DNA from: a virus
IMG/VR virus record: IMGVR_UViG_3300007639_000002
Coordinates: 1 to 64,000 of that record
Direction: 5' to 3' (one strand)
DNA: 64,000 nt
Shown one piece after another: positions 21,001 through 61,834 of this stretch. The position numbers were made by a program, and so were the translations under genes. The stretch's first letter is position 1; each line of letters opens with the position of its first letter. The notes below the pieces were generated by a model, which was given only the letters and a program-made list of their open reading frames with translations, had not been told where the DNA came from and made no database searches.

Positions 21001-21024
21001 GTACTAAGCATACTCCAATAGTAA

Positions 21025-21102
21025 GTGTGAGCACCCGGGAAGGAAAGGGGGACAACCCGGGTGCTCACGGGGCTGCTGGAAAAGAAGGGAAAACCAGCAG
21101 AC
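21025..21102 (-). ncRNA. Candidate two-hairpin sRNA with pyrimidine-rich (anti-SD-like) loops
   Basis: Own TATACT -10 at 21108-21113; perfect 7-bp and 13-bp stems; loops UUUUCCCUUCUUUU and UUGUCCCCCUUUCCUU. Confidence 0.55.
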
Positions 21103-44985: not shown

Positions 44986-45163
44986 ATACCTAGTATAGGG
45001 CTATCTAGGCGTTGTTTTTTGGTTAGCGGATTTTTGGAATAGGGCTATTGGGCCACTGGGCTGCTAGAGGGGGGTGGGTCCTGCCGGGCCACCCAGTAGT
45101 AGCGGCGACTTAACCATGGGGGGTATCCACAGTATAGCACCGCTACCTTACTGGTCACGAATC

Positions 45164-45358
45164 CTAGGCGAGTAACAACTCCCTGTGCTTCCGAGCCACT
45201 TCCATGTCTAACAGGTTCACCAGTGCATGAGCCAGTACGTCGTACTCGGCTTCACGCCCTGCTAAGACTGCGCCAATATCATCCACCATTGTCTGCATCA
45301 CATCTACCAATGCGACTGCTGTAACCATTTGCTTGCTGAGTTGTTTTGTTGTTGTCAT
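45164..45358 (-). CDS. Cassette protein (MTTTK), leaderless
   Basis: ATG at predicted +1; stop is the repeat TAG. Confidence 0.75.
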   Translation of the reverse strand: MTTTKQLSKQMVTAVALVDVMQTMVDDIGAVLAGREAEYDVLAHALVNLLDMEVARKHRELLLA

Positions 45359-45397
45359 ACTGCCACCTTACCATGTCCCTGCTGGGAGTCACGATTC

Positions 45398-45589
45398 CTA
45401 GATTTCCTCTTCCCAGTCTGAGTTCAGGCGCTCCAATGCCCGCAGTTCCTCCGCCACATCAAATGCAGTAGCGCATGGTGTGCAGAAGTATAACTCAGTG
45501 AGCCACCTGTCCGAGTACATAGGCTCGTGCGTTGGGCTAGGTATTGGAGCGTTGCATTCAACGCAGGTGTTTTGTGTTGTCGTTGTCAT
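45398..45589 (-). CDS. Cassette protein with CxxC...CxxC, leaderless
   Basis: CVEC and CTPC; ATG at +1; repeat TAG stop. Confidence 0.75.
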   Translation of the reverse strand: MTTTTQNTCVECNAPIPSPTHEPMYSDRWLTELYFCTPCATAFDVAEELRALERLNSDWEEEI

Positions 45590-45631
45590 GCTTCCAACCT
45601 ATCACATGACCCTCTCAGGTCACGATTCCTA

Positions 45632-45651
45632 CATAATGAGAATGATTCTCA
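45632..45651. promoter_or_regulatory. Fur/Zur-like box
   Basis: 7-1-7 palindrome TGAGAATgATTCTCA; 15/19 match to GATAATGATAATCATTATC. Confidence 0.5.
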
Positions 45652-45656
45652 ACTAA

Positions 45657-45672
45657 TGTTCCACGTGGAACA
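45657..45672. promoter_or_regulatory. parS: parS site 2
   Basis: TGTTCCACGTGGAACA within a 20-bp palindrome. Confidence 0.75.
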
Positions 45673-45692
45673 TTCCTAGAGTTGGGGCTATA

Positions 45693-45708
45693 TGTTCCAC
45701 GTGGAACA
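45693..45708. promoter_or_regulatory. parS: parS site 3
   Basis: TGTTCCACGTGGAACA. Confidence 0.75.
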
Positions 45709-45766
45709 TTGGTGCGGAGCGTAGGCAGGTATCCACCTACCCACACCCACCCAGCCATTGCTGGCA

Positions 45767-45928
45767 CTACTTGGGAGCACATGATGCCCAGTGCTCCAAT
45801 GCCCACTCTGCCCATGCGTTATGATCCAATGCCCACATATCCAGCGTGACAGTCTCGTCACAATAAACGCAGTGAGCGTTCAAGTACTGTGGGCATTCCA
45901 TGTCGTTGATGTTCTGTGTTGTTGTCAT
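45767..45928 (-). CDS. Cassette protein (53 aa, Cys/His/Trp-rich), leaderless
   Basis: Hand-translated MTTTQNINDMECPQYLNAHCVYC...EHWASCAPK. Confidence 0.7.
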   Translation of the reverse strand: MTTTQNINDMECPQYLNAHCVYCDETVTLDMWALDHNAWAEWALEHWASCAPK

Positions 45929-45967
45929 GTAACCAACCTATCATCTAGTGGCTCTGAGTCACGATTC

Positions 45968-46135
45968 CTAGTCCCTGTATTCTTGGGCGTTGTTGTAGTG
46001 ATATAGAGCCATGGCGTACTGTTGCTTTTTCAGGTCTGCGTATTTGCAAACCTCTGCCCTGTCTGCGTATTTCTTGGACAATCCCATGTAGTAGTCGTAT
46101 TGCTCTTTATTGGTAAATTGTTTTGTTGTTGTCAT
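45968..46135 (-). CDS. Cassette protein (55 aa), leaderless
   Basis: Hand-translated MTTTKQFTNKEQYDYY...; repeat TAG stop. Confidence 0.7.
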   Translation of the reverse strand: MTTTKQFTNKEQYDYYMGLSKKYADRAEVCKYADLKKQQYAMALYHYNNAQEYRD

Positions 46136-46174
46136 GTCTCCAACCTATCACGCCACCCACGTGAGTGACGAATC

Positions 46175-46369
46175 CTAGATAAATATATTCTGATACTCAT
46201 TTTGCGCATAGTACTCAGTGCGTAACCTTTCAGCACTGTTCATGAACCTACCCTCAGCCCGTGTTAGACCATAGGTGTACTCATGTGCCTTTAATGCATT
46301 CATCAGGTCTTCCAAAGCCTGCATTATTTTGATCTCAGTATCTGATAGTTGCTGTTGCGTTGTTGTCAT
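46175..46369 (-). CDS. Cassette protein, leaderless
   Basis: MTTTQ; repeat TAG stop. Confidence 0.75.
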   Translation of the reverse strand: MTTTQQQLSDTEIKIMQALEDLMNALKAHEYTYGLTRAEGRFMNSAERLRTEYYAQNEYQNIFI

Positions 46370-46408
46370 GCTTCCACCTTACCCTAGGGTCACCTTTGGT
46401 GACGATTC

Positions 46409-46576
46409 CTAGAACCTTGTATCTGTCACTGGGCGAACCTGCATATCCCTATGGCTGAGCCAATAGACGTTGCAGGCTTGGCGACTGCCGACCATGACTA
46501 CACACTTACGTGAAGAGTCATAGACTTCATGTGCTTTAGTGCTGGGCTTTACCTTTTTCATTTGCGTTGTTGTCAT
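46409..46576 (-). CDS. Cassette protein (55 aa), leaderless
   Basis: Hand-translated MTTTQMKKVKPS...; repeat TAG stop. Confidence 0.7.
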   Translation of the reverse strand: MTTTQMKKVKPSTKAHEVYDSSRKCVVMVGSRQACNVYWLSHRDMQVRPVTDTRF

Positions 46577-46615
46577 ATCCACACCTTATCAGGTCACCCT
46601 GCTGGGTCACGAATC

Positions 46616-46864
46616 CTACTTCAGCATTGCTTTCAGTTCAGCCTTCACCACACGTGCCGTGTCTCCACGCCATGCAGATGCATTGCTGAGGAAATAGGCG
46701 ACGATATCCCTAGCGGAGTCGTACCCATATGAGCCACTGATAGAGTCCAGCGAACGCATAGCGTCTAGGTACGGCACAGCACCAAAGTATGGCTTTTTCC
46801 AGTCTGCACTAATGTCACGTGCAATGGTTGATATTGGGCGATGTTGTTGTTTTGTTGTTGTCAT
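46616..46864 (-). CDS. Cassette protein, leaderless
   Basis: RPISTIARDI...AVPYLDAM...YFLSNA..WRG; repeat TAG stop. Confidence 0.8.
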   Translation of the reverse strand: MTTTKQQHRPISTIARDISADWKKPYFGAVPYLDAMRSLDSISGSYGYDSARDIVAYFLSNASAWRGDTARVVKAELKAMLK

Positions 46865-46903
46865 GTAATTACCTTATCAGTTAGTCGGGTTAGGTCACGA
46901 ATC

Positions 46904-47113
46904 CTAGATGTTATGTCCATCTAGTTCAGTTATTTTGGCGATTGCCAAAGATAGTACAGGCTTCAGCCCTAAGAGGAACATCCACACGCCGATCATCTCA
47001 GTGCGTAGTTCATCATCCTTTAGGGCATCTTCCACGGCAGTGTTCCATTCACCGAGCCTGCCCAGTACTTCTAATGTTGATGGTAGTGGTTTGGTTGTTG
47101 TTGTCGTTGTCAT
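46904..47113 (-). CDS. Cassette protein (MTTTTTTK), leaderless
   Basis: ATG 47113 fits the +1 spacing; repeat TAG stop. Confidence 0.75.
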   Translation of the reverse strand: MTTTTTTKPLPSTLEVLGRLGEWNTAVEDALKDDELRTEMIGVWMFLLGLKPVLSLAIAKITELDGHNI

Positions 47114-47122
47114 GTTCACACC

Positions 47123-47314
47123 TTACCAGCCTGCTGGCTCTAGTGACGATTCCTGATGCTCTTCTACTAGGTTGTCGTAGCACCATGTGCATACGTCAGT
47201 TCCCCAGTCTTCAGGGTCAAATCCATTATGCCCATCCACGATAGGGATCAGCATAGAAGATGCTCCACACCGTTCGCAGGCTCCGATATAAATGTTGTTG
47301 TTGTTGTCGTTCAT
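47123..47314 (-). CDS. Cassette protein with CxxC...CxxC, leaderless
   Basis: CERC and CTWC; reads through a TAG-to-CAG repeat variant to the TAA of the next -10 box. Confidence 0.7.
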   Translation of the reverse strand: MNDNNNNIYIGACERCGASSMLIPIVDGHNGFDPEDWGTDVCTWCYDNLVEEHQESSLEPAGW

Positions 47315-47353
47315 GTAATCACCTTACCACCTAGGAGCGTTAGGTCACGAATC

Positions 47354-47587
47354 CTAGATACCTTTCATATCGCAGATGTAATTGTGGCGAGCGTCAAAGT
47401 ACCAGTCAGACTCTTGAAAGGCTTGCTCGTCGCTGGGCGTTCCATCCTGTGCATATGCCATGAACTCTGCCCAGTTATCTAGGTAGTCGTCAGAGCCAAT
47501 GTAGGACTCTTCCCATTCTTCTATATCTTCAGGTGTTACGACTAATTTAGCCGATTCCATGTCTTCCACAGATGTGTATGTGAACAC
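47354..47587 (-). CDS. Acidic cassette protein (leadered, GGAGG SD)
   Basis: CA-rich 5' UTR, SD and GTG; repeat TAG stop. Confidence 0.75.
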   Translation of the reverse strand: MFTYTSVEDMESAKLVVTPEDIEEWEESYIGSDDYLDNWAEFMAYAQDGTPSDEQAFQESDWYFDARHNYICDMKGI

Positions 47588-47646
47588 TATGTGCCTCCGT
47601 TGTTGTCGTTGTTGATAGTTCTAACTTAGCACGTCACCCTGCTGGG

Positions 47647-47826
47647 TCACGAATCCTGCCGTGTGTCCATGTTCCACAGAATGCACTTAGCATCTTTTAA
47701 GATGTTGTATAGATTCATCTCTTCCCATGTCATGCCATAGTACCCATCACGCTGGGTCAAATCAGCCATGAACATAGTAAGCGTTTCATACATTTCAGTG
47801 TTGGTTATTTTCTTTGCTGTTTTCAT
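47647..47826 (-). CDS. Cassette protein (59 aa), leaderless
   Basis: Hand-translated MKTAKKITNTEMY...; stops at the in-frame TGA inside the repeat. Confidence 0.7.
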   Translation of the reverse strand: MKTAKKITNTEMYETLTMFMADLTQRDGYYGMTWEEMNLYNILKDAKCILWNMDTRQDS

Positions 47827-47865
47827 ATCTTCACCTTACCATGTAGTCGGGTTGAGTCACGATTC

Positions 47866-47942
47866 CTAGTGGGTATATTTGGTTAGATTAGCCTCAATAT
47901 ACCAGTGAGGTGCTTTCCCCGCTAACCATGCGGGTTTTCGTT
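47866..47942 (-). ncRNA. Candidate double-pseudoknot small RNA cassette
   Basis: Own repeat promoter, no credible ORF; two hairpins whose loops (UGGUUA, GGUAUAU) pair with adjacent 3' tail segments (UAACCA, AUAUACC). Confidence 0.65.
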
Positions 47943-47981
47943 AATCCCAACTTACCATGATGGAGTGTTGGGTTACGATTC

Positions 47982-48050
47982 CTAATAAAGGATGGCATTC
48001 AATGCCTTAGGAGGTGTCATGAATGCCACCCTCTATTAGTTGTCGTCGTT
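47982..48050 (-). ncRNA. Candidate hairpin sRNA displaying anti-Shine-Dalgarno CACCUCCU
   Basis: Own repeat promoter; 20-bp stem with two G-U pairs on - strand; 18-nt loop. Confidence 0.6.
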
Positions 48051-48089
48051 AATCCCAACCTACCACGTGGGTAGGCTGGGTCACGATTC

Positions 48090-48296
48090 CTAGAGGCTGA
48101 TATGCGCTCCTGAGAGCAAGTCTTCAACCTCATTGCGGATGGTGTCGCTGATGCTGTCACTGAAAGATGAGTTATCAGTGAAATCGTATTCATGGAGGAT
48201 GTCGTTAATGCGATCCTCCAAAGCATCTACTACTTGGTTCATTACCTTGTCACTGATTGCATTGACAAGTTGATTAAGCAATTCTTCCATGGTCAT
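48090..48296 (-). CDS. Acidic cassette protein (leadered; also the C-terminal part of a 141-aa fusion)
   Basis: Own promoter at 48354, CA-rich leader, GAAAGG SD; repeat TAG stop. Confidence 0.7.
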   Translation of the reverse strand: MTMEELLNQLVNAISDKVMNQVVDALEDRINDILHEYDFTDNSSFSDSISDTIRNEVEDLLSGAHISL

Positions 48297-48515
48297 GTTG
48301 TTAGTGCCTTTCGTTGTTGTTGATGAGTTCACTTTATCAGGTGGTTGTACTGAGTCACGATTCCTAGACTCCATGGCGATTTGCTCTTCATGATACTCAC
48401 GTAATAACTCTACGGTATAGTTCATGTAGATACCCTTTGCCATGGCATCTTCTACTTCAGTCTTTGCCATTAGTAAATGGAACACTTTAAGTTGTTGTTG
48501 CGTTTCGTTGTTCAT
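48090..48515 (-). CDS. Leaderless cassette protein fused in frame through the 48354 repeat
   Basis: ATG 48515 at +1; repeat read as SRNRDS. Confidence 0.55.
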   Translation of the reverse strand: MNNETQQQLKVFHLLMAKTEVEDAMAKGIYMNYTVELLREYHEEQIAMESRNRDSVQPPDKVNSSTTTKGTNNMTMEELLNQLVNAISDKVMNQVVDALEDRINDILHEYDFTDNSSFSDSISDTIRNEVEDLLSGAHISL

Positions 48516-48554
48516 GTAAGCACCTTATCAGGTGACATTGTTAGGTCACGATTC

Positions 48555-48782
48555 CTAGCGAATCTCTACAACCCTGCCTAAGCAAGTGAGTAAGTTGCCT
48601 ACGCTCGTAGTGGTTTCCCCTGCCGTGGTGGTGATAACTGCATCATCACCCACTACTTCTACAGAGATAACCCTTGTAATGATTGGGCGTGAGACAGGTG
48701 TCCATGATGGAATGACGATAAACTCGCCTTCTATAATTTGGTCAGCCCGTACTGTGAATGCTGGTTGTTGTTTCGTTGTCAT
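48555..48782 (-). CDS. Cassette protein (small beta-rich), leaderless
   Basis: ATG at +1; repeat TAG stop. Confidence 0.75.
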   Translation of the reverse strand: MTTKQQPAFTVRADQIIEGEFIVIPSWTPVSRPIITRVISVEVVGDDAVITTTAGETTTSVGNLLTCLGRVVEIR

Positions 48783-48821
48783 GGTTTCACCTTATCATGT
48801 TGAGTTGGTAGGTCACGAATC

Positions 48822-49133
48822 CTAGTATGACCTGAACACGTAACCATCAAGTTCCCACACGTCACCACCTAGTTCTAGGTCACGTGCGAATGACTCATAG
48901 TCAAAGTATCCAGTTTTGACTGCTTCAGAAAAGATATCGTCTGCCAACTCTTCAGCGTACTCACGTACTGATGTGACTGCTACGTAGGCATCCTCAAATG
49001 CTGATACTTCGCTGTCGTAGTCTTTGGTTATGCCAAGGTTCCAGCAGTAGATGGCAAAGGCTTGCTCGTCTATGTTGTTGTCTTCTGCTACCTGTGCAAT
49101 TTCTGCGTTGCTGTATTTATGTGTTGTTTCCAT
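48822..49133 (-). CDS. ardA: ArdA-like antirestriction (DNA mimic) protein, leaderless
   Basis: Acidic; FEDAY, EYAEEL, YFDYESFARDL and GYVFR match the ArdA C-terminal signature. Confidence 0.78.
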   Translation of the reverse strand: METTHKYSNAEIAQVAEDNNIDEQAFAIYCWNLGITKDYDSEVSAFEDAYVAVTSVREYAEELADDIFSEAVKTGYFDYESFARDLELGGDVWELDGYVFRSY

Positions 49134-49172
49134 ACCTGTACCTTACCCTCTAGTAGTTGTTAGTCACGAATC

Positions 49173-49358
49173 CTAGAACGATGTTCCTACCAGCGCATTA
49201 TCAAATGTGCGATAGATTACAATGCTCCTAGTTTGGTCTATAGATTCCCACATGGATGCCAACCACGTTGGCAGGTGTGCATCATGCAGTGTGCGTATGT
49301 ACGTTTGGGGGTCACCCTCTAGTTGATATTGTACTTCTACTTTTTTCGTTGTTGTCAT
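49173..49358 (-). CDS. Cassette protein, leaderless
   Basis: MTTTKK; repeat TAG stop. Confidence 0.75.
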   Translation of the reverse strand: MTTTKKVEVQYQLEGDPQTYIRTLHDAHLPTWLASMWESIDQTRSIVIYRTFDNALVGTSF

Positions 49359-49397
49359 GGTTTCACCTTAGCATTCTGAGTTAGTGGGTCACGAATC

Positions 49398-49652
49398 CTA
49401 CAACTCAAAAGAATGCAGTATCTTAGACGTTTCGTCTTGTGAATGTTTATTGGATGTCCAAAAGTGAACCTCTGTACGTGTGTAGATACCACCATGGCAC
49501 ACCATGCCTAGGCGATTACGTGCTTCTTTTTCTGCACGTTCTTCATTGTCGTAGTCTGCACCACCTACGTAGTCTTCGTTGTTGTCCCAAAAGTGTACTG
49601 TGTACCCTGAAGCAATATCTTGATTCATGTTGTTGCCTTTCGTTGTTGTCAT
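49398..49652 (-). CDS. Cassette protein (leaderless ATG plus in-frame SD-led ATG at 49628)
   Basis: ATGACAACAACGAAAGGCAACAACATG. Confidence 0.75.
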   Translation of the reverse strand: MTTTKGNNMNQDIASGYTVHFWDNNEDYVGGADYDNEERAEKEARNRLGMVCHGGIYTRTEVHFWTSNKHSQDETSKILHSFEL

Positions 49653-49682
49653 GTAATCAACTTACCACGTGGTGGTGTTAGG

Positions 49683-50048
49683 TCACGAATGCAGTTCCCG
49701 CATTTTGACCAACCCAACCTGATAATTGGCGGTATTGGTCAAGTTAAGCCACCAGCCAGTGACGAATCCATTTTCGTATTCGTCACAGATATGCTCGTTG
49801 TATTCGCCATGCTCGGTGAGAAGATCACCCAGTAGTTCGTTGATGGATTCCCCTGCCCATTCACCTGATAGTGGTGATGGTGGCATGAAATCGTCGGGGA
49901 GATCACACTCGTCATATAGGCGAAGGAACTCTACATATGTTTCCTGCGTAGTGTTACCGTCAAAGATCCATGATGATGCATTCTTGCCAGCAACTAATCC
50001 ACGAATGTATGCATCATATGCATCAGTTGTTTTGGTTGTTGTGTCCAT
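49683..50048 (-). CDS. Acidic cassette protein, leaderless
   Basis: PSPLSGEWAGES; ends at the TGA in the repeat. Confidence 0.75.
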   Translation of the reverse strand: MDTTTKTTDAYDAYIRGLVAGKNASSWIFDGNTTQETYVEFLRLYDECDLPDDFMPPSPLSGEWAGESINELLGDLLTEHGEYNEHICDEYENGFVTGWWLNLTNTANYQVGLVKMRELHS

Positions 50049-50057
50049 GTGAGTACC

Positions 50058-50282
50058 TTACCCTGCCTTGATGTCCAGTGACGAATCCTGCCATACTTCT
50101 TTGTCTTCTTTAAGTTTGTATGCCCATTTGTATGCTGTGTTCATTGCTGTCCACATTTGGCTGTATGGGGAATTGAATGAGTCTTCTTGATGAGCGTGTA
50201 AGTTGTAGCACACTGATTCCAGTGCATCTATCGCATTAAATAGTTCTTCAAGTGTCATGTCTTCGTTGATGTCGTGTTTCAT
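50058..50282 (-). CDS. Cassette protein, leaderless
   Basis: ATG at +1; reads through a CAG repeat variant. Confidence 0.7.
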   Translation of the reverse strand: MKHDINEDMTLEELFNAIDALESVCYNLHAHQEDSFNSPYSQMWTAMNTAYKWAYKLKEDKEVWQDSSLDIKAG

Positions 50283-50321
50283 GTTGTCACCTTATCATTT
50301 TGTTGTTGGTAGTCACGAATC

Positions 50322-50831
50322 CTATCCATACACCACCTCACCAAAGAGAATGAATTGCAGAATGGAGTCTGCTGTGAGAGCGTCGTACCAACCATCAAAG
50401 GCATCATCATCGTTGAAATAGATGGCACGTAAGCATTGCAACGCAGTCTTACCCAGTTGTCCATGGTCAGGTACGTTCTCCTGTGAGAACTCACCTGTGC
50501 CTACCTTGACGATAAAATCTATAACCATTTGCTCGTTGATAGGGTAAGCCTTGCCATAGGTGAACCATTCATCCCAGTCGTTTATTCCTTCTTGAAAACC
50601 ATGTTCTTTGTTGGCATACAGTGGGTGGGTTTTGTCCACCTCTGTTACTTCTTCTTCTACGTAGATGGTTGCGCTACAGTACTGATCAGTGTTACCCAAT
50701 TCGTACTCTCCGTTTGCACTTCCCCATTTGTAGTTCTTGCGAATCGCCCAGTACCCACATCCTAGTTCCAAAGCATCTGTAAGAATTGTGCAGGCTCCGT
50801 ATGTCATTTGTTGTTTATTTGCTGTTGTCAT
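50322..50831 (-). CDS. Acidic cassette protein, leaderless
   Basis: GCGYWA and DALTADSILQFILFGEVVYG motifs; repeat TAG stop. Confidence 0.8.
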   Translation of the reverse strand: MTTANKQQMTYGACTILTDALELGCGYWAIRKNYKWGSANGEYELGNTDQYCSATIYVEEEVTEVDKTHPLYANKEHGFQEGINDWDEWFTYGKAYPINEQMVIDFIVKVGTGEFSQENVPDHGQLGKTALQCLRAIYFNDDDAFDGWYDALTADSILQFILFGEVVYG

Positions 50832-50870
50832 GTCATCAACTTATCAGGTGAGTGTGCTGAGTCACGAATC

Positions 50871-51329
50871 CTACCAACTACTTTGATAGGAGAACTGGTA
50901 CTCTTCGTCAAGAGACAGCGCATTTTTAATGATGGAAATTGAGTACTCTAGGCTCTCAAAGTACCACTCGTCGTACTCAATGTTGCCAAAGAAGAAACCA
51001 CTAGCGGTGGGTAACAGGTCATCGGCAAGGCTATGGTCACCTAGAACCTGTTCGCAGACGTTCATTAACTCCGCAAGTTTCTCACGTGACACGTATGCAT
51101 CTTGGCATTCATCTACGCCATCCTGTACGTTGTCCACGAACCACTGGTGGATGGCGTTGGCTTTACGCCAGTAGCCCACCATGCACCGTACTGTGATAGA
51201 TGGATAGTCAGTGTCTAGTTCAATGTCTAATACTTTCCTGACTGCATGGTACGCTTCATTAACGTCGTCACCGTAGTGTGATGCTGGTGAGAGGTAGCGT
51301 TCTGCTTTGAGGTACTGATCTAATCCCAT
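50871..51329 (-). CDS. Phage protein of MGLDQY...YWRKAN...YQSSW type, leadered
   Basis: Recognisable recurring phage motif set; CA-rich leader with AAAGGA SD. Confidence 0.8.
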   Translation of the reverse strand: MGLDQYLKAERYLSPASHYGDDVNEAYHAVRKVLDIELDTDYPSITVRCMVGYWRKANAIHQWFVDNVQDGVDECQDAYVSREKLAELMNVCEQVLGDHSLADDLLPTASGFFFGNIEYDEWYFESLEYSISIIKNALSLDEEYQFSYQSSW

Positions 51330-51402
51330 GTTGTTATCCTTTTGTTGTTGGTTGTTGTTACTGAAGTTACTTTATCATGTTGTTGTTATGAGTGGCGAAT
51401 CC

Positions 51403-51475
51403 TGTGGAATACACCGATTTCTACGACTAGGGGAAACAACAACGAAACCCTAGGAGCAAACCGATGTACTCCACA
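51403..51475 (-). ncRNA. Candidate hairpin RNA with loop antisense to the cassette (ACA)n starts
   Basis: 18-bp stem with three G-U pairs, inner 6-bp stem, loop UUUCGUUGUUGUUUC. Confidence 0.55.
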
Positions 51476-51479
51476 TGAC

Positions 51480-51674
51480 TCACCACTCATGTTCTTGTAT
51501 AGATAATATCAGCACTAATGCGTTAAACATCAACAATATGCTAAGAAAACCTAAGAGCAAATTACCTGTATTTTCCATACCACCCATGAACCCAATGCTC
51601 AGGATGATAAGAGGCAGAATACAGCGTTTCTTTGTACGTGTCCAGCGATACCAGTTGGTCACCCTGATCCTCAT
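51480..51674 (-). CDS. Two-TM membrane protein
   Basis: Hydrophobic helices; ATGA coupling. Confidence 0.65.
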   Translation of the reverse strand: MRIRVTNWYRWTRTKKRCILPLIILSIGFMGGMENTGNLLLGFLSILLMFNALVLILSIQEHEW

Positions 51675-51919
51675 AACTCTTCCCCGTTTTCGTCAGTGAA
51701 GATCAGGTCAGAGATATCTGTCTGATGACCCCAGCCACATGAAAAATCATCAGTCTTGGCAAGATGTTCAATGTGCTGAACAACATCGTCTAACGTGATG
51801 TCCATGTCTTCATCTATGTCACTATTGAGAGTCCTGATGTCTTTGATTACGTCGTACACGTCATAAGTTATTACTTTTGTAACGTTGATGTACTTGGGTA
51901 GTTCTGTTGTTTCGTTCAT
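51671..51919 (-). CDS. Acidic cassette protein, leaderless
   Basis: ATG 51919 fits the +1 spacing. Confidence 0.75.
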   Translation of the reverse strand: MNETTELPKYINVTKVITYDVYDVIKDIRTLNSDIDEDMDITLDDVVQHIEHLAKTDDFSCGWGHQTDISDLIFTDENGEEL

Positions 51920-51958
51920 ATCCATACCTTATCTTGTTGTTAGTGTTAGTCACGAATC

Positions 51959-52360
51959 CTAGATATTGGCTTCCCAGTCAATATCAGAGTCATAAATGTC
52001 AATGCCAAAACGTGAGTCCCAACGCCATACTTCCTCAAAGGCAACGGTATCTGCACGAACCATTACCCTGCCACGAATGAAACCCTCTTCAGGATTAGTC
52101 TCGTCTGCGTTCCATTGTTTCACGTACTCACCTACACACTCGTACACGTAGCCCTGTAGGGCATCTACGTGCTGTGGGTTATCTAAACACCATGTGTTTT
52201 CTATCACGTCTACGAGCATCCCCATGACCATTAGTTTTGGGTTGCTTTCGCACATATTTATGATGCGATTGAGCATACGCTCTATTTCGCTTGCTGGTAA
52301 TACACCATCCCAGTACGCCATGGTTTCTTGCTCGTAGTACAAGCCTTCACAGCCATCCAT
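51959..52360 (-). CDS. Acidic hypothetical protein
   Basis: TAATG coupling; repeat TAG stop. Confidence 0.7.
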   Translation of the reverse strand: MDGCEGLYYEQETMAYWDGVLPASEIERMLNRIINMCESNPKLMVMGMLVDVIENTWCLDNPQHVDALQGYVYECVGEYVKQWNADETNPEEGFIRGRVMVRADTVAFEEVWRWDSRFGIDIYDSDIDWEANI

Positions 52361-52809
52361 TATGCTTCCAAATCTTCTAGTGGGTACAACACCTTACGTG
52401 CGTACACTTCTTCAATAGCGTCAAGAAGAACCTCATGGTAGTTGCTCCATGCTTTTTCATTGGAAATAGCAAACGCTGAAATAATCTCTAGTGTTTCTTT
52501 ATCAACATCAAAAGCCCATACAACAGAGTCTTTGATATCGGGATCGGGAGTACCCCAATGAACTTCTAATTCTTCACGAATAGAGGCAGGTGAGTAACAA
52601 ACGCTGTTGCTGTAGTTCACGTCACCCCATCCTGTATGGTCACCCATAAACTTCAATGAGATGCCATGCTTACGTGCAATGTTAGATATTTCTTCGTCAG
52701 AAAATGCTTCTAAGGCTGACTCTTCTGATGTAAGGTCATCAGTATCAACGATATAGCAGTTGTCTGCATTAACAATAGTTCCTGATTGTGCGTCAATAAG
52801 TAATTTCAT
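52360..52809 (-). CDS. Acidic cassette protein, leaderless
   Basis: TAAGGT-N6-ATG. Confidence 0.75.
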   Translation of the reverse strand: MKLLIDAQSGTIVNADNCYIVDTDDLTSEESALEAFSDEEISNIARKHGISLKFMGDHTGWGDVNYSNSVCYSPASIREELEVHWGTPDPDIKDSVVWAFDVDKETLEIISAFAISNEKAWSNYHEVLLDAIEEVYARKVLYPLEDLEA

Positions 52810-52825
52810 AGTTGTACCTTAGCCT

Positions 52826-53068
52826 TCAGAGGCTGTTACTCACGAATCCTAGTTTGTCAAGGATAGCGTCACGTACCCATTCAATATCAGGACAAATCTC
52901 ACATACATCGTACTGATTGCATATTTCTGCCCATGCATCTTTGGTAAGTACTTCATAATCATCATCGTCATAAAGGCTTGATGCCCATTCGTATGAGTAG
53001 ATGTCACAACAGATGTCGTCGTCATCTTTTAAGTTTGCGATAATCTCTTTTAAGGTTGATACCTTCAT
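52826..53068 (-). CDS. Acidic hypothetical protein
   Basis: AGAGGA SD; reads through a repeat. Confidence 0.7.
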   Translation of the reverse strand: MKVSTLKEIIANLKDDDDICCDIYSYEWASSLYDDDDYEVLTKDAWAEICNQYDVCEICPDIEWVRDAILDKLGFVSNSL

Positions 53069-53205
53069 GTTGTTTCCTCTATTAGTTTTTCTAGTTTGTT
53101 AATGAGTTCTAGCATTTCATCTGTCAATGGACTGCACCACGTTGTCTTAACGTTACGTAGTTCTGTCAATAGCAGGTGTAAGCCAAAATCTAATTGCTGT
53201 GTCAT
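53065..53205 (-). CDS. Cassette protein (46 aa)
   Basis: Hand-translated MTQQLDFGLHLLLTELRNVK...; short AGAGG leader from promoter 53247. Confidence 0.6.
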   Translation of the reverse strand: MTQQLDFGLHLLLTELRNVKTTWCSPLTDEMLELINKLEKLIEETT

Positions 53206-53483
53206 TGTGTTACCTCTACATTCACTATATTATGAACAGAGCCTGAGTCACGAATCCTAGAGAACGTGCTACCTTTTGTCGGGTCTGTGCGGATGAAATA
53301 GAATGAGTCTGCCCACTGATGGATATCGTCGGCAATGTCTTCATTCATGGCGACTACCTGCCCATGCTCATGGTCAATATAGACTGCCAGTTCACCGTCT
53401 TCTGTTATATACAATCCGATATACCAATCGCCCATCATTATCTGTGCGGAGTTATCGGTTTGCTCAATGTAGTTGTTACTCAT
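53202..53483 (-). CDS. Hypothetical protein
   Basis: ATGA coupling; reads through repeat 53247. Confidence 0.65.
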   Translation of the reverse strand: MSNNYIEQTDNSAQIMMGDWYIGLYITEDGELAVYIDHEHGQVVAMNEDIADDIHQWADSFYFIRTDPTKGSTFSRIRDSGSVHNIVNVEVTQ

Positions 53484-53725
53484 AAACAGAACCCATTACA
53501 ACGTGGGAATCCGCAGGCTGGGCAGTAAGACTCTTCTTCTTCTTCTTCTTCGTCTTTTGTGATGCCAAAGATGGTATAACCAGCCTCAACCAAAAGGTCA
53601 GCAACTAGGTCTAATGACTCACCATCGGTGTACTCGTACTCTAGGTCTTTGGGATTAGAACCTTCAACACGCTTTTCTAAGATGTTGATGATTTCTTGAA
53701 TGAGTTCGTCGTTTGCTGTTGTCAT
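53480..53725 (-). CDS. Acidic cassette protein with C-terminal Cys cluster, leaderless
   Basis: MTTAN; CPACGFPRCNGFC. Confidence 0.75.
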   Translation of the reverse strand: MTTANDELIQEIINILEKRVEGSNPKDLEYEYTDGESLDLVADLLVEAGYTIFGITKDEEEEEEESYCPACGFPRCNGFCL

Positions 53726-53734
53726 ATCATCAAC

Positions 53735-54016
53735 TTACCATACTGGTGGTGCTAGGTCAGGATTCCTGAGAGAAGAGGTATTTGGGATTACGTCACAGTT
53801 CATTAAATAAATGGCGTTGCTGAGTAGTGATGAAAGTTCATCTTCATTGTCAATGTACTCCCCGTCACCAAGATAAGCAACAGACCATTCATGTGTGTCG
53901 TTGTGCTGTACTGTGCCGTCAGAGAAATGCTCTTCCTCAGCGTTAGTATCCCATTCCCACTTGTTGGTGGATGAATCGTATGAGACTATGAAATAGTGTG
54001 TATGGTTTCCGTTCAT
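53735..54016 (-). CDS. Acidic hypothetical protein
   Basis: Start re-assigned to the SD-led ATG 54016. Confidence 0.65.
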   Translation of the reverse strand: MNGNHTHYFIVSYDSSTNKWEWDTNAEEEHFSDGTVQHNDTHEWSVAYLGDGEYIDNEDELSSLLSNAIYLMNCDVIPNTSSLRNPDLAPPVW

Positions 54017-54174
54017 TGTGTTACTTCCTCTATGTCTGTTGTGTTCCATGTTTCTTGCTCGTCTACACACCATGACTCGTTGCTGTCAAAGAGTTGTTTA
54101 GCCTGTTCAATGCTGTCGGCATCTACTTCGTGGCGGTAGTGAGTTACTTTTTCGTATGTGAGTGTGTACTTCAT
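54013..54174 (-). CDS. Small acidic protein (EVDADSIEQA type)
   Basis: Start re-assigned to ATG 54174; similar to neighbour 54171-54365. Confidence 0.6.
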   Translation of the reverse strand: MKYTLTYEKVTHYRHEVDADSIEQAKQLFDSNESWCVDEQETWNTTDIEEVTQ

Positions 54175-54365
54175 GCTGGTTCTTCCTCTTCTACATCTTC
54201 TACATCCCATGGAGTGTTCCACTCACGAAAGCCCCACATATCTTTTGACTCTAAATCGTCATCTGTGAACTTATCGTAAGCCTCTAGCGCACCCTCTTCT
54301 GAGTCTGCTTTAATTTCGTAGCAGTGGCTAATTACTTCATCTACACGTACTAAATAAGTTTTCAT
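54171..54365 (-). CDS. Small acidic protein (EIKADSEEGA type)
   Basis: GAAAGGA SD after CA-rich leader. Confidence 0.7.
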   Translation of the reverse strand: MKTYLVRVDEVISHCYEIKADSEEGALEAYDKFTDDDLESKDMWGFREWNTPWDVEDVEEEEPA

Positions 54366-54425
54366 GTTGTTCCTTTCGTTGTCGTTATTTACAACTTACC
54401 ATTAGAAGTGTGTTGGTCACGAATC

Positions 54426-54845
54426 CTACGTAGCGTCACTCATGACGAATGCCGATACACAAGCCTGCTCGTACTCTTCTGCATTGCGTACCCCATAGAA
54501 GAAATGGTCACCAGCACCTGTAGTAATCTCTGCCCACGTCATCAGTGAGTCTGTTGTGATGTCTCCATTGTCTAGGATCACTGTTCCCCACATAGCGTCG
54601 GCAACAGACATGACGTACTCTTTAATGTTTTCAGCCATATCAAAATGATCTACGTAGTCAATACGCCACCTGCCTTCACAGGGGAACCCACTCTCTAGGT
54701 CTACTGGCTCATTCTCATTGGCAGGTATAAACCCCACAAGTGTAATGTCATCTACATTCTCCACCAGCATTGCTAGGCGGTCATACTTTTGGTTAGAGTC
54801 CGATGGCACTACGCACCTCTTCTTCGCAGGCTTCACGTGCTTCAA
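54426..54845 (-). CDS. Acidic hypothetical protein (start uncertain, possibly 54770)
   Basis: Repeat TAG stop. Confidence 0.6.
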   Translation of the reverse strand: MKHVKPAKKRCVVPSDSNQKYDRLAMLVENVDDITLVGFIPANENEPVDLESGFPCEGRWRIDYVDHFDMAENIKEYVMSVADAMWGTVILDNGDITTDSLMTWAEITTGAGDHFFYGVRNAEEYEQACVSAFVMSDAT

Positions 54846-55392
54846 TGTATGCGTTGTCTACACGCTCCCACATGGTGTCCATGTCAGTATCCTCAAAACT
54901 ACCCTCTACCGTGATGTTCTCTGTGAACGAAGAATGCCATTGACCGTCATGGTATGAACTAGCACCTGCAAAGCCCATGCCCTGCTCGTCATAAGACAAA
55001 ACAAACTTAAAGTTTGGATACAACGTAGAGATATGCTCAAAAGCCTTTTCGGGTGGTGCCCATGCTGAGTTGAAGTAAAACGAACGGTAGCCGATGTCTT
55101 CGCCACCCATCTCAGTATCGTAATCACCCCACTTGGTTCCCCAGTTGTCACAACACCAGTCGTACCAATCCTTGTGACCGTACTTGGCGATGTTCGCCTC
55201 TTGTTGTATGCGATGCTCTTCTGCTTTATCTGCACCCATGAAGCCTGCCACTGTCTCGTATAGTTCTGTAGGGCAAGGGTAAAGAGAACGTATGATCTTT
55301 ATACGCCCGTCTACTGTGATGTCTTCTACAAACTTCTGTAGTGCTAATTCGTTACCCCATACGTAGAGGTTATTACTGCAATCGTTAGGCAT
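54793..55392 (-). CDS. DUF1281/YubB ferredoxin-like domain protein
   Basis: MPNxCxN, WYDWC.DNWGTKW, F.SAWAPP and YDEQGMGFAG motifs. Confidence 0.75.
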   Translation of the reverse strand: MPNDCSNNLYVWGNELALQKFVEDITVDGRIKIIRSLYPCPTELYETVAGFMGADKAEEHRIQQEANIAKYGHKDWYDWCCDNWGTKWGDYDTEMGGEDIGYRSFYFNSAWAPPEKAFEHISTLYPNFKFVLSYDEQGMGFAGASSYHDGQWHSSFTENITVEGSFEDTDMDTMWERVDNAYIEAREACEEEVRSAIGL

Positions 55393-55726
55393 TTACTTTC
55401 CAATCTTCTATGATGCGGTTATTTTTCATGTCTTTTACAAGTAGGCGTACCCACTCAGACGTATTTGCAAATCCAACTTCTTCGCCGTCGTCGTACTCAA
55501 CTGGGTACACGGTGACCATGATGTTTTCATCACCGAACTCATCGTTATAGTCCCATGCAAAAGTGTTGAAATCAAAAGCCAAATCCCCGATGATGATAGA
55601 TTCCCATGCATCTTCGTCGCCAGTGAACTTACGGCGAGAACGGTGATTCTTCTTAAGTATCTTGTAAGCGTGTTTCATTAACGCTTTTTTATTTTGTTTA
55701 ATGTCTTGAAGAGTTGATGTTTTCAT
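55385..55726 (-). CDS. Cassette protein, leaderless
   Basis: ATG at +1 of repeat 55756. Confidence 0.75.
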   Translation of the reverse strand: MKTSTLQDIKQNKKALMKHAYKILKKNHRSRRKFTGDEDAWESIIIGDLAFDFNTFAWDYNDEFGDENIMVTVYPVEYDDGEEVGFANTSEWVRLLVKDMKNNRIIEDWKVNA

Positions 55727-55765
55727 ATATGCACCTTATCATTGAGAGTGGTTGAGTCACGAATC

Positions 55766-55972
55766 CTATTGCTGTTCAATAAGAAAAGATGGGCGTTCAA
55801 TAGTTGAGTGAGTACCCTCTACGACTGTGATGCCGTAGTGAACTTCACCCCAACCTAAAATGTCTGTAGGGTCATTGCCTAACAATGCTTCGTACACAAG
55901 GTCTTGTGCCTGCATTTCGTTCTTGGCTTTGACAAAGTATGTTCCTGTTGCTGTTACTGTGTAGTAGTTCAT
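55766..55972 (-). CDS. Cassette protein, leaderless
   Basis: ATG at +1 of repeat 56002; repeat TAG stop. Confidence 0.75.
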   Translation of the reverse strand: MNYYTVTATGTYFVKAKNEMQAQDLVYEALLGNDPTDILGWGEVHYGITVVEGTHSTIERPSFLIEQQ

Positions 55973-56000
55973 ACCGCCACTTTAACTCACGTGATGGCTG

Positions 56001-56026
56001 AGTCACGAATCCTAGGAATCGTGACT
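56001..56026. promoter_or_regulatory. Back-to-back pair of repeat promoters sharing a central CTAG (divergence point)
   Basis: AGTCACGAATC-CTAG-GAATCGTGACT. Confidence 0.85.
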
Positions 56027-59068: not shown

Positions 59069-59412
59069 CAGGTGCTGTAAAGGATGGGGGGTTCAGTCCT
59101 ATGATTGAACTCCCCAGCCTTAAGCACGTAATGGATTTGGACTGGCGTGAGCATTCTGCCTGTTCCACGGTATCTAAGAATGTGTTCTTTGACTACAACT
59201 CAGTGAGTCTCCTTAAGGTACAGAAGAAGGCATACGAGCGGGAGGCATTAGATACTTGTGCCAGTTGCCCTGTACACACCCAGTGTTACGAGTTCGCTGT
59301 TAAGAACAACGAGAAGTACGGAATATGGGCAGGCACATTCCCTGACCAACGCAAGGCACTGTACAAGATTTATAAAACTACAGGTGTTCTAGAAACTCTA
59401 CAAGTTGTTTAG
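59065..59412 (+). CDS. whiB: WhiB-family transcription factor (start probably 59101 or 59131)
   Basis: W...AC...FF...CxxCPV...C...GIWAG. Confidence 0.88.
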   Translation: MTGAVKDGGFSPMIELPSLKHVMDLDWREHSACSTVSKNVFFDYNSVSLLKVQKKAYEREALDTCASCPVHTQCYEFAVKNNEKYGIWAGTFPDQRKALYKIYKTTGVLETLQVV

Positions 59413-61417: not shown

Positions 61418-61834
61418 CTAGTCTTTGCTTGACAAGAGACTGAAATGGATCATTTCCAAATCTTTAACTGGTTCTTCCCAAGATGGAATTGCATTCATGT
61501 TGATGTTTTCGTGTTGTTTCTCATGTGCCTCAAGGCACGAACGACATTGGCACCCTTGTCGGTACCTTATCCATGAACCATGTGGCTTATGGGCTGATGC
61601 CGATGGCTTAAGCGCACTAAACACGGTACGTTCAAGTGGCGTAAGACCACCCCACATACCCCAGCGTTCGTCAATACCCGCATCTAAACAGTCTTGCCAC
61701 ACAGGGCATCGGTGACAAAGTTCACGACCCACGGAATAGTATTGTTCGGGTACTTTTGCTTCTAGTGGGGGGTACCAAAAGATGTTGTTACGTTTCTTAC
61801 ATAGGGCATCAGACATCCATTCATGTAACTGCAT
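61418..61834 (-). CDS. whiB: WhiB-family transcription factor with extra C-terminal H...CxCxxC module
   Basis: WMSDALC...CHRCPV...C...GMWGG; HGSW..Y..GCQCRSC. Confidence 0.88.
   Translation of the reverse strand: MQLHEWMSDALCKKRNNIFWYPPLEAKVPEQYYSVGRELCHRCPVWQDCLDAGIDERWGMWGGLTPLERTVFSALKPSASAHKPHGSWIRYRQGCQCRSCLEAHEKQHENINMNAIPSWEEPVKDLEMIHFSLLSSKD

Follow-up and report, generated by a model that had tools for sequence, protein, structure and literature searches.

The locus described here raises the question of whether a long hairpin at the end of a phage gene acts, through its loop, on the mRNAs of a whole gene array. It lies in a 64-kb stretch (hereafter the window) of a 79-kb IMG/VR contig, within an array of early genes that carry nearly identical promoter cassettes. 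A previous inspection of the letters of the window (hereafter the sequence-only reading) proposed that the hairpin is a trans-acting feedback repressor of this cassette array, a view that is partly supported by the computational results of the present study. The translational control of leaderless mRNAs is poorly understood, though such mRNAs are common in Actinobacteria. According to a review from 2022, no sRNA regulator of leaderless translation and no sRNA or protein that masks leaderless mRNAs had been described (PMC9031893). With approximately 30 near-identical promoter cassettes, mRNAs predicted to start with AUG(ACA)n, and one complementary conserved loop, the locus represents a compact and testable system.

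The phage, its host, and the cassette array

The contig derives from an uncultured tailed phage, in which sheath, portal, and terminase genes were identified. Two genes of the WhiB family, at 59143-59361 (+) and 61625-61819 (-), score above the Pfam cut-off, and since WhiB proteins are confined to Actinobacteria and the phages that infect them (PMC13013590), the presence of two such proteins points to an actinobacterium as the host.

The cassette motif (Table 1) was found 36 times on both strands of the window, against an expected number of 2.4. The spacing between its box, the TANNNT element, and the start is constant, and the ATG is located exactly at the predicted +1 in most copies, a geometry suggestive of leaderless mRNAs. 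The cassette 5' ends referred to below are predictions from this promoter geometry. The first codons of the cassette genes are CA-rich, encoding MTTT and similar starts. CA repeats located 3' of the start codon enhance the translation of leaderless as well as leadered mRNAs (Martin-Farmer and Janssen, 1999, as cited in PMC9031893), and ACA motifs are translation enhancers that are silenced by the GU-rich seed of the sRNA GcvB (PMC3879156).

The gene before a cassette often ends in the TAG of the cassette box, and a Shine-Dalgarno-like sequence, AAGGTGA, overlaps the -10 element, which suggests that cassettes may be expressed in two ways, leaderless from their own promoter and Shine-Dalgarno-led from read-through transcripts. 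One cassette protein, encoded at 48822-49133 (-), matches a PHROG annotated as an anti-restriction protein (phrog_2059, E 2.8e-11), which fits an early array involved in host takeover. At 56001-56026, two cassette boxes stand back to back and form a 13-bp palindrome (AGTCACGAATCCT/AGGAATCGTGACT); this divergent promoter pair marks the border between the - strand array and a + strand SNF2-helicase gene.

Table 1. Positions of the hairpin elements, neighboring genes and promoters, the cassette array, and the perfect loop complements in the window
Feature	Position	Strand	Remarks
Apical loop UUUCGUUGUUGUUUC	51433-51447	-	15 nt; unpaired probability ~1 at most positions
Upper stem CUAGGG/CCCUAG, closing the loop	51427-51453	-	6 bp; apical unit nearly identical to that of hairpin H2 in the relative
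Middle helix, upper stem, and loop	51403-51475	-	middle helix of 20 bp with 2-nt bulge; stretch first reported
Outer helix, 5' arm	51477-51490	-	14 bp; includes the final H E W codons of the 64-aa gene and its stop, UGA (51480-51482)
Outer helix, 3' arm	51388-51401	-	overlaps -35-like cassette box GGATTCGCCAC (51392-51402)
64-aa small membrane protein gene	51480-51674	-	3' end runs into the hairpin; homologue precedes H1 in the relative
Cassette promoter and first gene of the two-gene transcript ending in the hairpin	51671-51959	-	box 51949-51959; predicted +1 at 51919
Next cassette promoter	51362-51402	-	box 51392-51402; -10 TAAAGT at 51369-51374; predicted +1 at 51362
Array of 31 cassettes, GGAWTCGTSAC-N17-TANNNT-N6-start	45124-56012	-	predicted 5' ends are the candidate loop targets
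Perfect 12-nt target ACAACAACGAAA	49344-49355	-	codons 2-5 of the predicted leaderless cassette 49358; net -16.4 kcal/mol
Perfect 12-nt target	49638-49649	-	predicted leaderless cassette starting at 49652; net -15.2 kcal/mol
Perfect 13-nt target	48309-48321	-	leader starting at 48324; net -13.8 kcal/mol

Architecture and strand preference of the hairpin

Folding of the - strand with longer flanks yielded a hairpin of 103 nt at 51388-51490, which comprises 40 bp in three helices and a 15-nt apical loop and has an energy of -58.4 to -59.2 kcal/mol (z -8.15). This fold recovered all elements described in the sequence-only reading, namely, the loop UUUCGUUGUUGUUUC, its closing stem CUAGGG/CCCUAG, and a stem of 17-18 bp in which three pairs are G-U; the extent assigned to them at that time (51403-51475) is part of the structure, but was too short because a 14-bp outer helix extends it on both sides. 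In this outer helix, AUGAGUGGUGAGUC, which contains the last codons and stop codon of the 64-aa gene, pairs with GAUUCGCCACUCAU, which contains the -35-like box of the next promoter, and a 1x1 mismatch separates it from the 20-bp middle helix. The helices thus offer approximately 20 bp or more of near-continuous double-stranded RNA, the length of an RNase III site. The loop is composed of 9 U, 4 G, and 2 C with no A, and the cost of keeping it open was calculated to be 0.97 kcal/mol. In a genome-wide scan of 90-nt windows, the hairpin ranked among the most stable structures of the genome and was the sole long hairpin within the cassette array.

The helix contains six G-U pairs and no A-C pair on the - strand, and these six positions, the only non-Watson-Crick positions of the helix, become A-C mismatches on the + strand, the fold of which reached only -42.5 kcal/mol. 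The strand preference noted previously was thus borne out. This asymmetry also bears on an explanation at the level of DNA, namely, that the palindrome is relevant only as DNA, as a recombination relic, a protein-binding site, or a cruciform. In favor of this explanation, there is an overlap between the arms and a promoter box, and the cassettes of such arrays are thought to shuffle; nevertheless, each of the six non-Watson-Crick positions is a G-U pair on the - strand, the same asymmetry is present in a relative described below, and no other copy of the arms was found anywhere in the genome, such that an exclusively DNA-level function is hardly credible.

Position in the transcript and absence of a canonical terminator

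All genes around the hairpin are located on the - strand, which is, therefore, both the coding strand and the strand favored by the structure; the sequence-only reading had raised the prospect that the + strand may be the transcribed one. The promoter box at 51959 is followed by an 82-84-aa gene and the 64-aa membrane protein gene, which overlap, and no cassette box or -10 element was detected between 51959 and the hairpin. The hairpin is predicted to be the 3' end of this two-gene early transcript, the start of which is placed at 51919. Its 5' boundary falls within the final four codons of the 64-aa gene, the position of an sRNA derived from a 3' untranslated region, and this is also the case in the relative. 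The promoter directly after the hairpin serves a leadered gene encoding a protein of 152 aa (50871-51329).

No U-tract follows the stem, which continues into AACAACAACAUGAUAAAG, and a terminator scan of 50800-52100 identified no terminator-like site. Canonical intrinsic terminators combine a GC-rich stem and a loop of 3-8 nt with a U-tract of 7-9 nt directly behind the stem, and the present hairpin, with 40 bp, a 15-nt loop, and no U-tract, does not have this form. Mycobacterial RNA polymerase requires a U-tract for termination (PMC3993855). With neither its own promoter nor a U-tract, the hairpin also differs from sRNAs of the GcvB type, which are independent transcription units or are processed into discrete RNAs.

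These features need to be weighed against the possibility that the hairpin is structural punctuation only, i.e., that it ends, processes, or stabilizes upstream transcripts as a block to 3'-exonucleases, an RNase III-type site, or a factor-dependent terminator, that it insulates two blocks of the array from each other, and that the complementarity of its loop has no function. A stop codon on one side and the next promoter box on the other delimit the hairpin exactly, its 40-bp helix is a plausible substrate for a double-strand-specific RNase, and it is the only long hairpin in an array that appears to be split into blocks by further structured elements at 47870-48050 and 45040-45800. Strong hairpins are also present at the ends of other gene clusters of the genome (11017-11047, 21013-21060, 36375-36410, and 59080-59120), all without a U-tract, and that at 21013-21060 has a 17-nt C/U-rich loop. 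A canonical terminator is, however, absent because the U-tract needed by mycobacterial RNA polymerase (PMC3993855) is missing, and punctuation does not account for the properties of the loop described in the following two sections.

Complementarity of the loop to cassette 5' ends

On the + strand of the 79-kb genome, the sequence GTTGTTGTT has 15 copies, whereas its single - strand copy lies in the loop; punctuation alone does not explain why the only (GUU)3 of the strand is found there. The 12-mer ACAACAACGAAA has exactly three copies on the - strand, each at a predicted 5' end or leader, and its sole + strand copy is the hairpin loop itself. The 12-nt perfect complements that the sequence-only reading had noted at the starts of cassettes 49358 and 49652 and in the 48324 leader were located exactly, the last at 48309-48320 within a perfect match of 13 nt (Table 1).

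The same reading had recommended a comparison of the loop with all cassette 5' ends against controls, and the outcome was clearly positive. The duplex energy of the loop averaged -11.55 kcal/mol over the 31 predicted 5' ends and -6.6 kcal/mol over the interiors of array genes, and the former mean was matched by none of 1500 random - strand 15-mers and by 0.3% of shuffles of the same composition. After correction for accessibility, 23 of the 31 predicted 5' ends, but only 2% of the gene-interior controls, paired at -10 kcal/mol or better; this applied to 20 of the 24 5' ends downstream of the hairpin and to only three of the seven upstream. Six of the eight - strand copies of ACAACGAAA lie within 31 nt of a cassette start, which argues that the match of the loop is more specific than CA-richness. 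An accessible seed that faces a motif shared by start regions, as known for sRNAs of the GcvB type, was thus found in silico in the window and also in the relative.

The loop may instead act in cis, pairing in read-through transcripts with CA-rich tracts of the same molecule and controlling the translation or decay of that transcript only. Its partners would be its own leaderless 5' end (51919, net -10.5), which is indeed a predicted target, or the AACAACAAC tracts in the next leader (51351-51359 and 51379-51387), which provide exact 9-nt complements adjoining the hairpin. The loop is out of reach for the nearest of these tracts, which adjoins the base of the 40-bp helix; a pseudoknot involving the CA tract immediately beside the hairpin was rejected as sterically implausible. 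Since the sequence after the corresponding hairpin of the relative has a match of 6 nt only, and the best partners of the loop are separately transcribed cassettes, we regard action restricted to cis as quite improbable.

Conservation in a divergent relative

A scan with a relaxed cassette motif identified a relative with the same system (IMGVR_UViG_3300047275_000471 and _000379), which is syntenic with the window, has a GC content of 0.51-0.54, and shows 66-73% nucleotide identity in most shared stretches. It carries at least 31 cassettes with the box variant GGATTCG[T/C]CAC (L173, L172, and L170:1-9400). A homologue of the 64-aa membrane protein (42% identity, E 2e-14) is directly followed by a long hairpin, H1, with a - strand fold of -51.7 kcal/mol (z -6.5) and a + strand fold of -37.6 kcal/mol, the same asymmetry as in the window. 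Its outer stem, in which UGGUGAGUC pairs with GGAUUCGUCA, matches that of the window, while the middle stem differs in sequence and is still fully paired, with at least 11 positions changed on both sides when the structures are read in register. The apex of H1 is GU-rich and contains UUCGUUG and GUUGUUGU. A second hairpin, H2, is located one cassette beyond H1 at the stop codon of the next gene; it has a 10-bp stem and the loop UUUUGUUGUUGUUUGU, and its top, comprising the loop and closing stem, is nearly identical to the apical unit in the window. A scan of IMG/VR for this apical unit returned this relative as the only match. Neither H1 nor H2 is followed by a U-tract.

The rewritten stem, shared strand asymmetry, and conserved GU-rich apex rule out a chance palindrome as well as a freely varying loop; the sequence-only reading had named a hairpin acting only as a terminator, with a non-conserved loop, as the finding that would speak against its proposal, and the relative keeps the hairpin, its GU-rich apex, and, in H2, a near-identical top. 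As in GcvB-type sRNAs, in which the seed is conserved and other parts vary, UUCGUUG, GUUGUUGU, and the apical unit were retained whereas the middle stem was rewritten, a pattern that derives from this single relative. At the relative's syntenic site upstream of the homologue of the 152-aa gene, no hairpin was found, and the hairpin travels with the membrane protein gene and not with its supposed targets. The box variant GCCAC inside the hairpin was considered as an adaptation to the stem, an idea that was rejected since GCCAC is frequent among the boxes of the relative.

Against its own 34 predicted 5' ends, the loops of the relative ranked in the top 0.5-1.3% of its - strand oligomers and the top 0.7-1.7% of shuffles. 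The enrichment was weaker than that in the window, with 53% of the 5' ends at -11 or better versus 12% of interior controls, and in RNAduplex calculations with the 26-nt apex of H1, interior controls scored equally well. CAACGA is common all through the array of the relative. The most common 5' motif of the CAACGA type is ACAACGAAA in the window (six copies) and GCAACGAA[A/C/G] (five copies) or ACAACGAAC (two copies) in the relative, and the core of the loop follows the local motif, being UUUCGUUGU in the former and GUUCGUUGC in the latter. This co-variation between two phages is suggestive of pairing, not proof of it.

These comparisons bear on two of the explanations. The first, mentioned above, is structural punctuation, which leaves unexplained the persistence of the loop motif and apical unit despite a completely rewritten middle stem, as well as the rank of the relative's loops in the top ~1% against its own 5' ends; we consider it unlikely that punctuation is the whole function of the hairpin. 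The second is that the A-free, GU-rich loop presents a binding site for an RNA-binding protein of the phage or host on a rigid helix, with the antisense likeness as a by-product. The conservation of the loop and closing stem as a unit and the extreme composition of the loop (9 U, 4 G, 2 C, and no A) are consistent with a protein site, and the array encodes many small proteins without an assigned function. No candidate protein was identified, however, and the loop of H1 differs in the same manner as the 5' motif of its own phage, which is predicted by base pairing and not by a fixed site, making a protein site improbable.

A branched structure is present in the relative at L170:2865-2964 (-), directly after H2 and before a degenerate cassette box; it is large (-53.6 kcal/mol), equally stable on both strands, and has no counterpart in the window.

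Searches for further relatives and RNA families

Rfam 15 and tRNA scans of the window returned no family at the gathering threshold, and a permissive Rfam search produced only sub-threshold matches to miRNA-precursor models, which represent generic long hairpins; the Rfam C4 family did not match the hairpin. Among GenBank phages, no match was found at the DNA level, and protein-level matches were limited to weak ones from Klebsiella phages for the 152-aa gene. Relatives of this gene were collected at 80 loci in IMG/VR and 80 in metagenomes, all of which were at most 55% identical, and none were found in GTDB genomes. These loci contained no cassette motif and no hairpin with a GU-rich loop. 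Among 49 distant relatives of the 152-aa gene, 21 had one of the most stable windows of their locus at most 260 nt upstream, against no more than 12.8 expected, which weakly suggests a tendency towards a strong upstream hairpin and adds to the points in favor of structural punctuation. Loci retrieved using the 84-aa gene (L083-L085) had no hairpin.

Closer relatives of the 152-aa gene were found at the protein level (P0001-P0004, with 82-97% identity). A strain from another sample (L082, IMGVR_UViG_3300037189_004981) matches the window at 98% identity from position 54828 on; its contig breaks inside the cassette array at this position, short of the hairpin, perhaps as an assembly break at repeats. 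The strict cassette pattern matched only this strain, the relaxed pattern added the one informative relative together with two chance matches in Granulosicoccaceae MAGs, and a search using the membrane protein led to the same single relative.

Proposed mode of action

The conserved (GUU)n/UUCGUUG loop occurs in phages with conspicuous CAACGA-containing, CA-rich 5' ends, and base pairing with these ends is, therefore, the simplest function for it. Whether a co-transcribed, stable hairpin RNA does pair with the CA-rich 5' ends of leaderless early mRNAs is, in our estimation from the sequence evidence, evenly balanced. The hairpin is in any case a good candidate for an RNA that may control the translation of a whole gene array. 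We propose more tentatively, and with somewhat less than an even chance of being correct, that the hairpin RNA is the master antisense of the leaderless early array, the loop of which pairs with the CA-rich enhancer after the 5'-terminal AUG and either switches translation off or protects the 5' ends.

In the broader reading of a hairpin RNA that pairs with the 5' ends, the 40-bp helix would give rise to a long-lived, exonuclease-resistant fragment, and the hairpin may also mark the end or a cleavage point of upstream transcripts. Its A-free 15-nt loop is complementary to the CAACGA-containing, CA-rich sequence that would follow the 5'-terminal AUG in most cassette mRNAs, and it would pair mainly with the 5' ends of cassettes downstream of the hairpin. 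A free 5' end is only a few nucleotides away from the predicted targets, which would allow the duplex to form through the loop. The CA-rich enhancer and start region would then be masked, and the translation of the leaderless early mRNAs would likely fall; alternatively, the 5' ends may be stabilized through protection from a 5'-exonuclease. A further effect of the hairpin on the 3' end of the upstream transcript, through stability or processing, is very probable and is compatible with an antisense role.

Among the points that weigh against pairing are the lack of both a separate promoter and a U-tract, the weaker enrichment in the single informative relative, and the linkage of the hairpin to the membrane protein gene instead of its supposed targets. 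In addition, the formation of 12 bp inside a closed 15-nt loop needs the target to be threaded or the upper stem to open, and one RNA would have to titrate approximately 20-30 mRNA species. If the master antisense proposal is true, the hairpin RNA would be the first sRNA regulator of leaderless translation and a phage counterpart of GcvB-type enhancer silencing, which would extend the silencing of CA enhancers to leaderless messages and viruses. Pairing would enable the phage to shut down or stabilize an entire early-gene array with one short RNA, and the elements of the system may provide parts for the synthetic control of leaderless expression in actinobacteria.

Comparison with known systems

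A functional parallel is offered by GcvB of enterobacteria, which lowers translation by masking C/A-rich (ACA) enhancers near the start sites of many mRNAs (PMC3879156). In both cases, one GU-rich single-stranded segment, the R1 seed in GcvB, is complementary to a CA-rich motif of many mRNAs. In contrast to the phage hairpin, GcvB is encoded by the host, has a promoter and a U-tract terminator of its own, and depends on Hfq; its seed links hairpins instead of forming an apical loop, and it acts on mRNAs that carry Shine-Dalgarno sites in their leaders, whereas the putative targets here are leaderless actinophage mRNAs. The two RNAs share no sequence or Rfam similarity.

The phage antisense RNAs c4 of P1/P7 and CI of P4 are encoded ahead of their targets within one early or immunity region and transcribed together with them, and their exposed loops pair with short repeated sites. 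The present hairpin resembles them in being phage-encoded, in its co-transcription within the early region that holds its putative targets, and in the predicted pairing of a loop with short repeated complementary sites. However, c4 and CI address two or three sites in one transcript, not approximately 20 separate 5' ends; RNase P or RNase E releases them as defined RNAs, and they control the immunity of temperate elements.

In the IS10 system, the loop of a long stable hairpin, RNA-OUT, pairs with the extreme 5' end of RNA-IN and covers its start, and the free 5' end permits the helix to form. The phage hairpin shares with this pair the arrangement of a stable-hairpin loop facing an mRNA 5' terminus, but RNA-OUT is encoded opposite a single target with approximately 35 nt of complementarity, whereas the proposed pairing would occur in trans over 9-13 nt with many targets.

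Long imperfect hairpins without a U-tract are also found between the early genes of T7, in which cleavage by RNase III leaves a 3' hairpin that stabilizes the upstream mRNA. The phage hairpin has the same length class, imperfection, lack of a U-tract, and location between early genes, and cleavage is putative in this case. The loops of the T7 hairpins have no known role, while in the present structure it is the loop that is conserved and statistically exceptional. The sRNAs 6C, MrsI, and RsaE of Actinobacteria and Firmicutes carry their seeds in apical hairpin loops and do not need Hfq; their loops are C-rich and target G-rich Shine-Dalgarno sequences, in contrast to the G/U-rich phage loop and the CA-rich coding 5' ends that are its predicted targets.

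Other structured elements of the array

Further elements were observed in the array and at its end. A 20-bp hairpin at 47982-48050 (-) is predicted to be transcribed from its own cassette promoter, and its 18-nt loop contains CACCUCCU, which is identical to the 3' end of 16S rRNA; CACCTCCT, which is located in this loop, has a single - strand copy in the 79-kb genome and was not found in the available contigs of the relative. A small structured non-coding cassette at 47870-47945 (-), ACCCGCAUGGUUAGCGGGGAAA..., has a counterpart, CCCGCACGGUUGGCGGGGAAAA, at L172:305-404 of the relative. The parS-like perfect palindromes TGTTCCACGTGGAACA at 45648-45713 are situated at the end of the array and are kept in the relative (L173:273-372).
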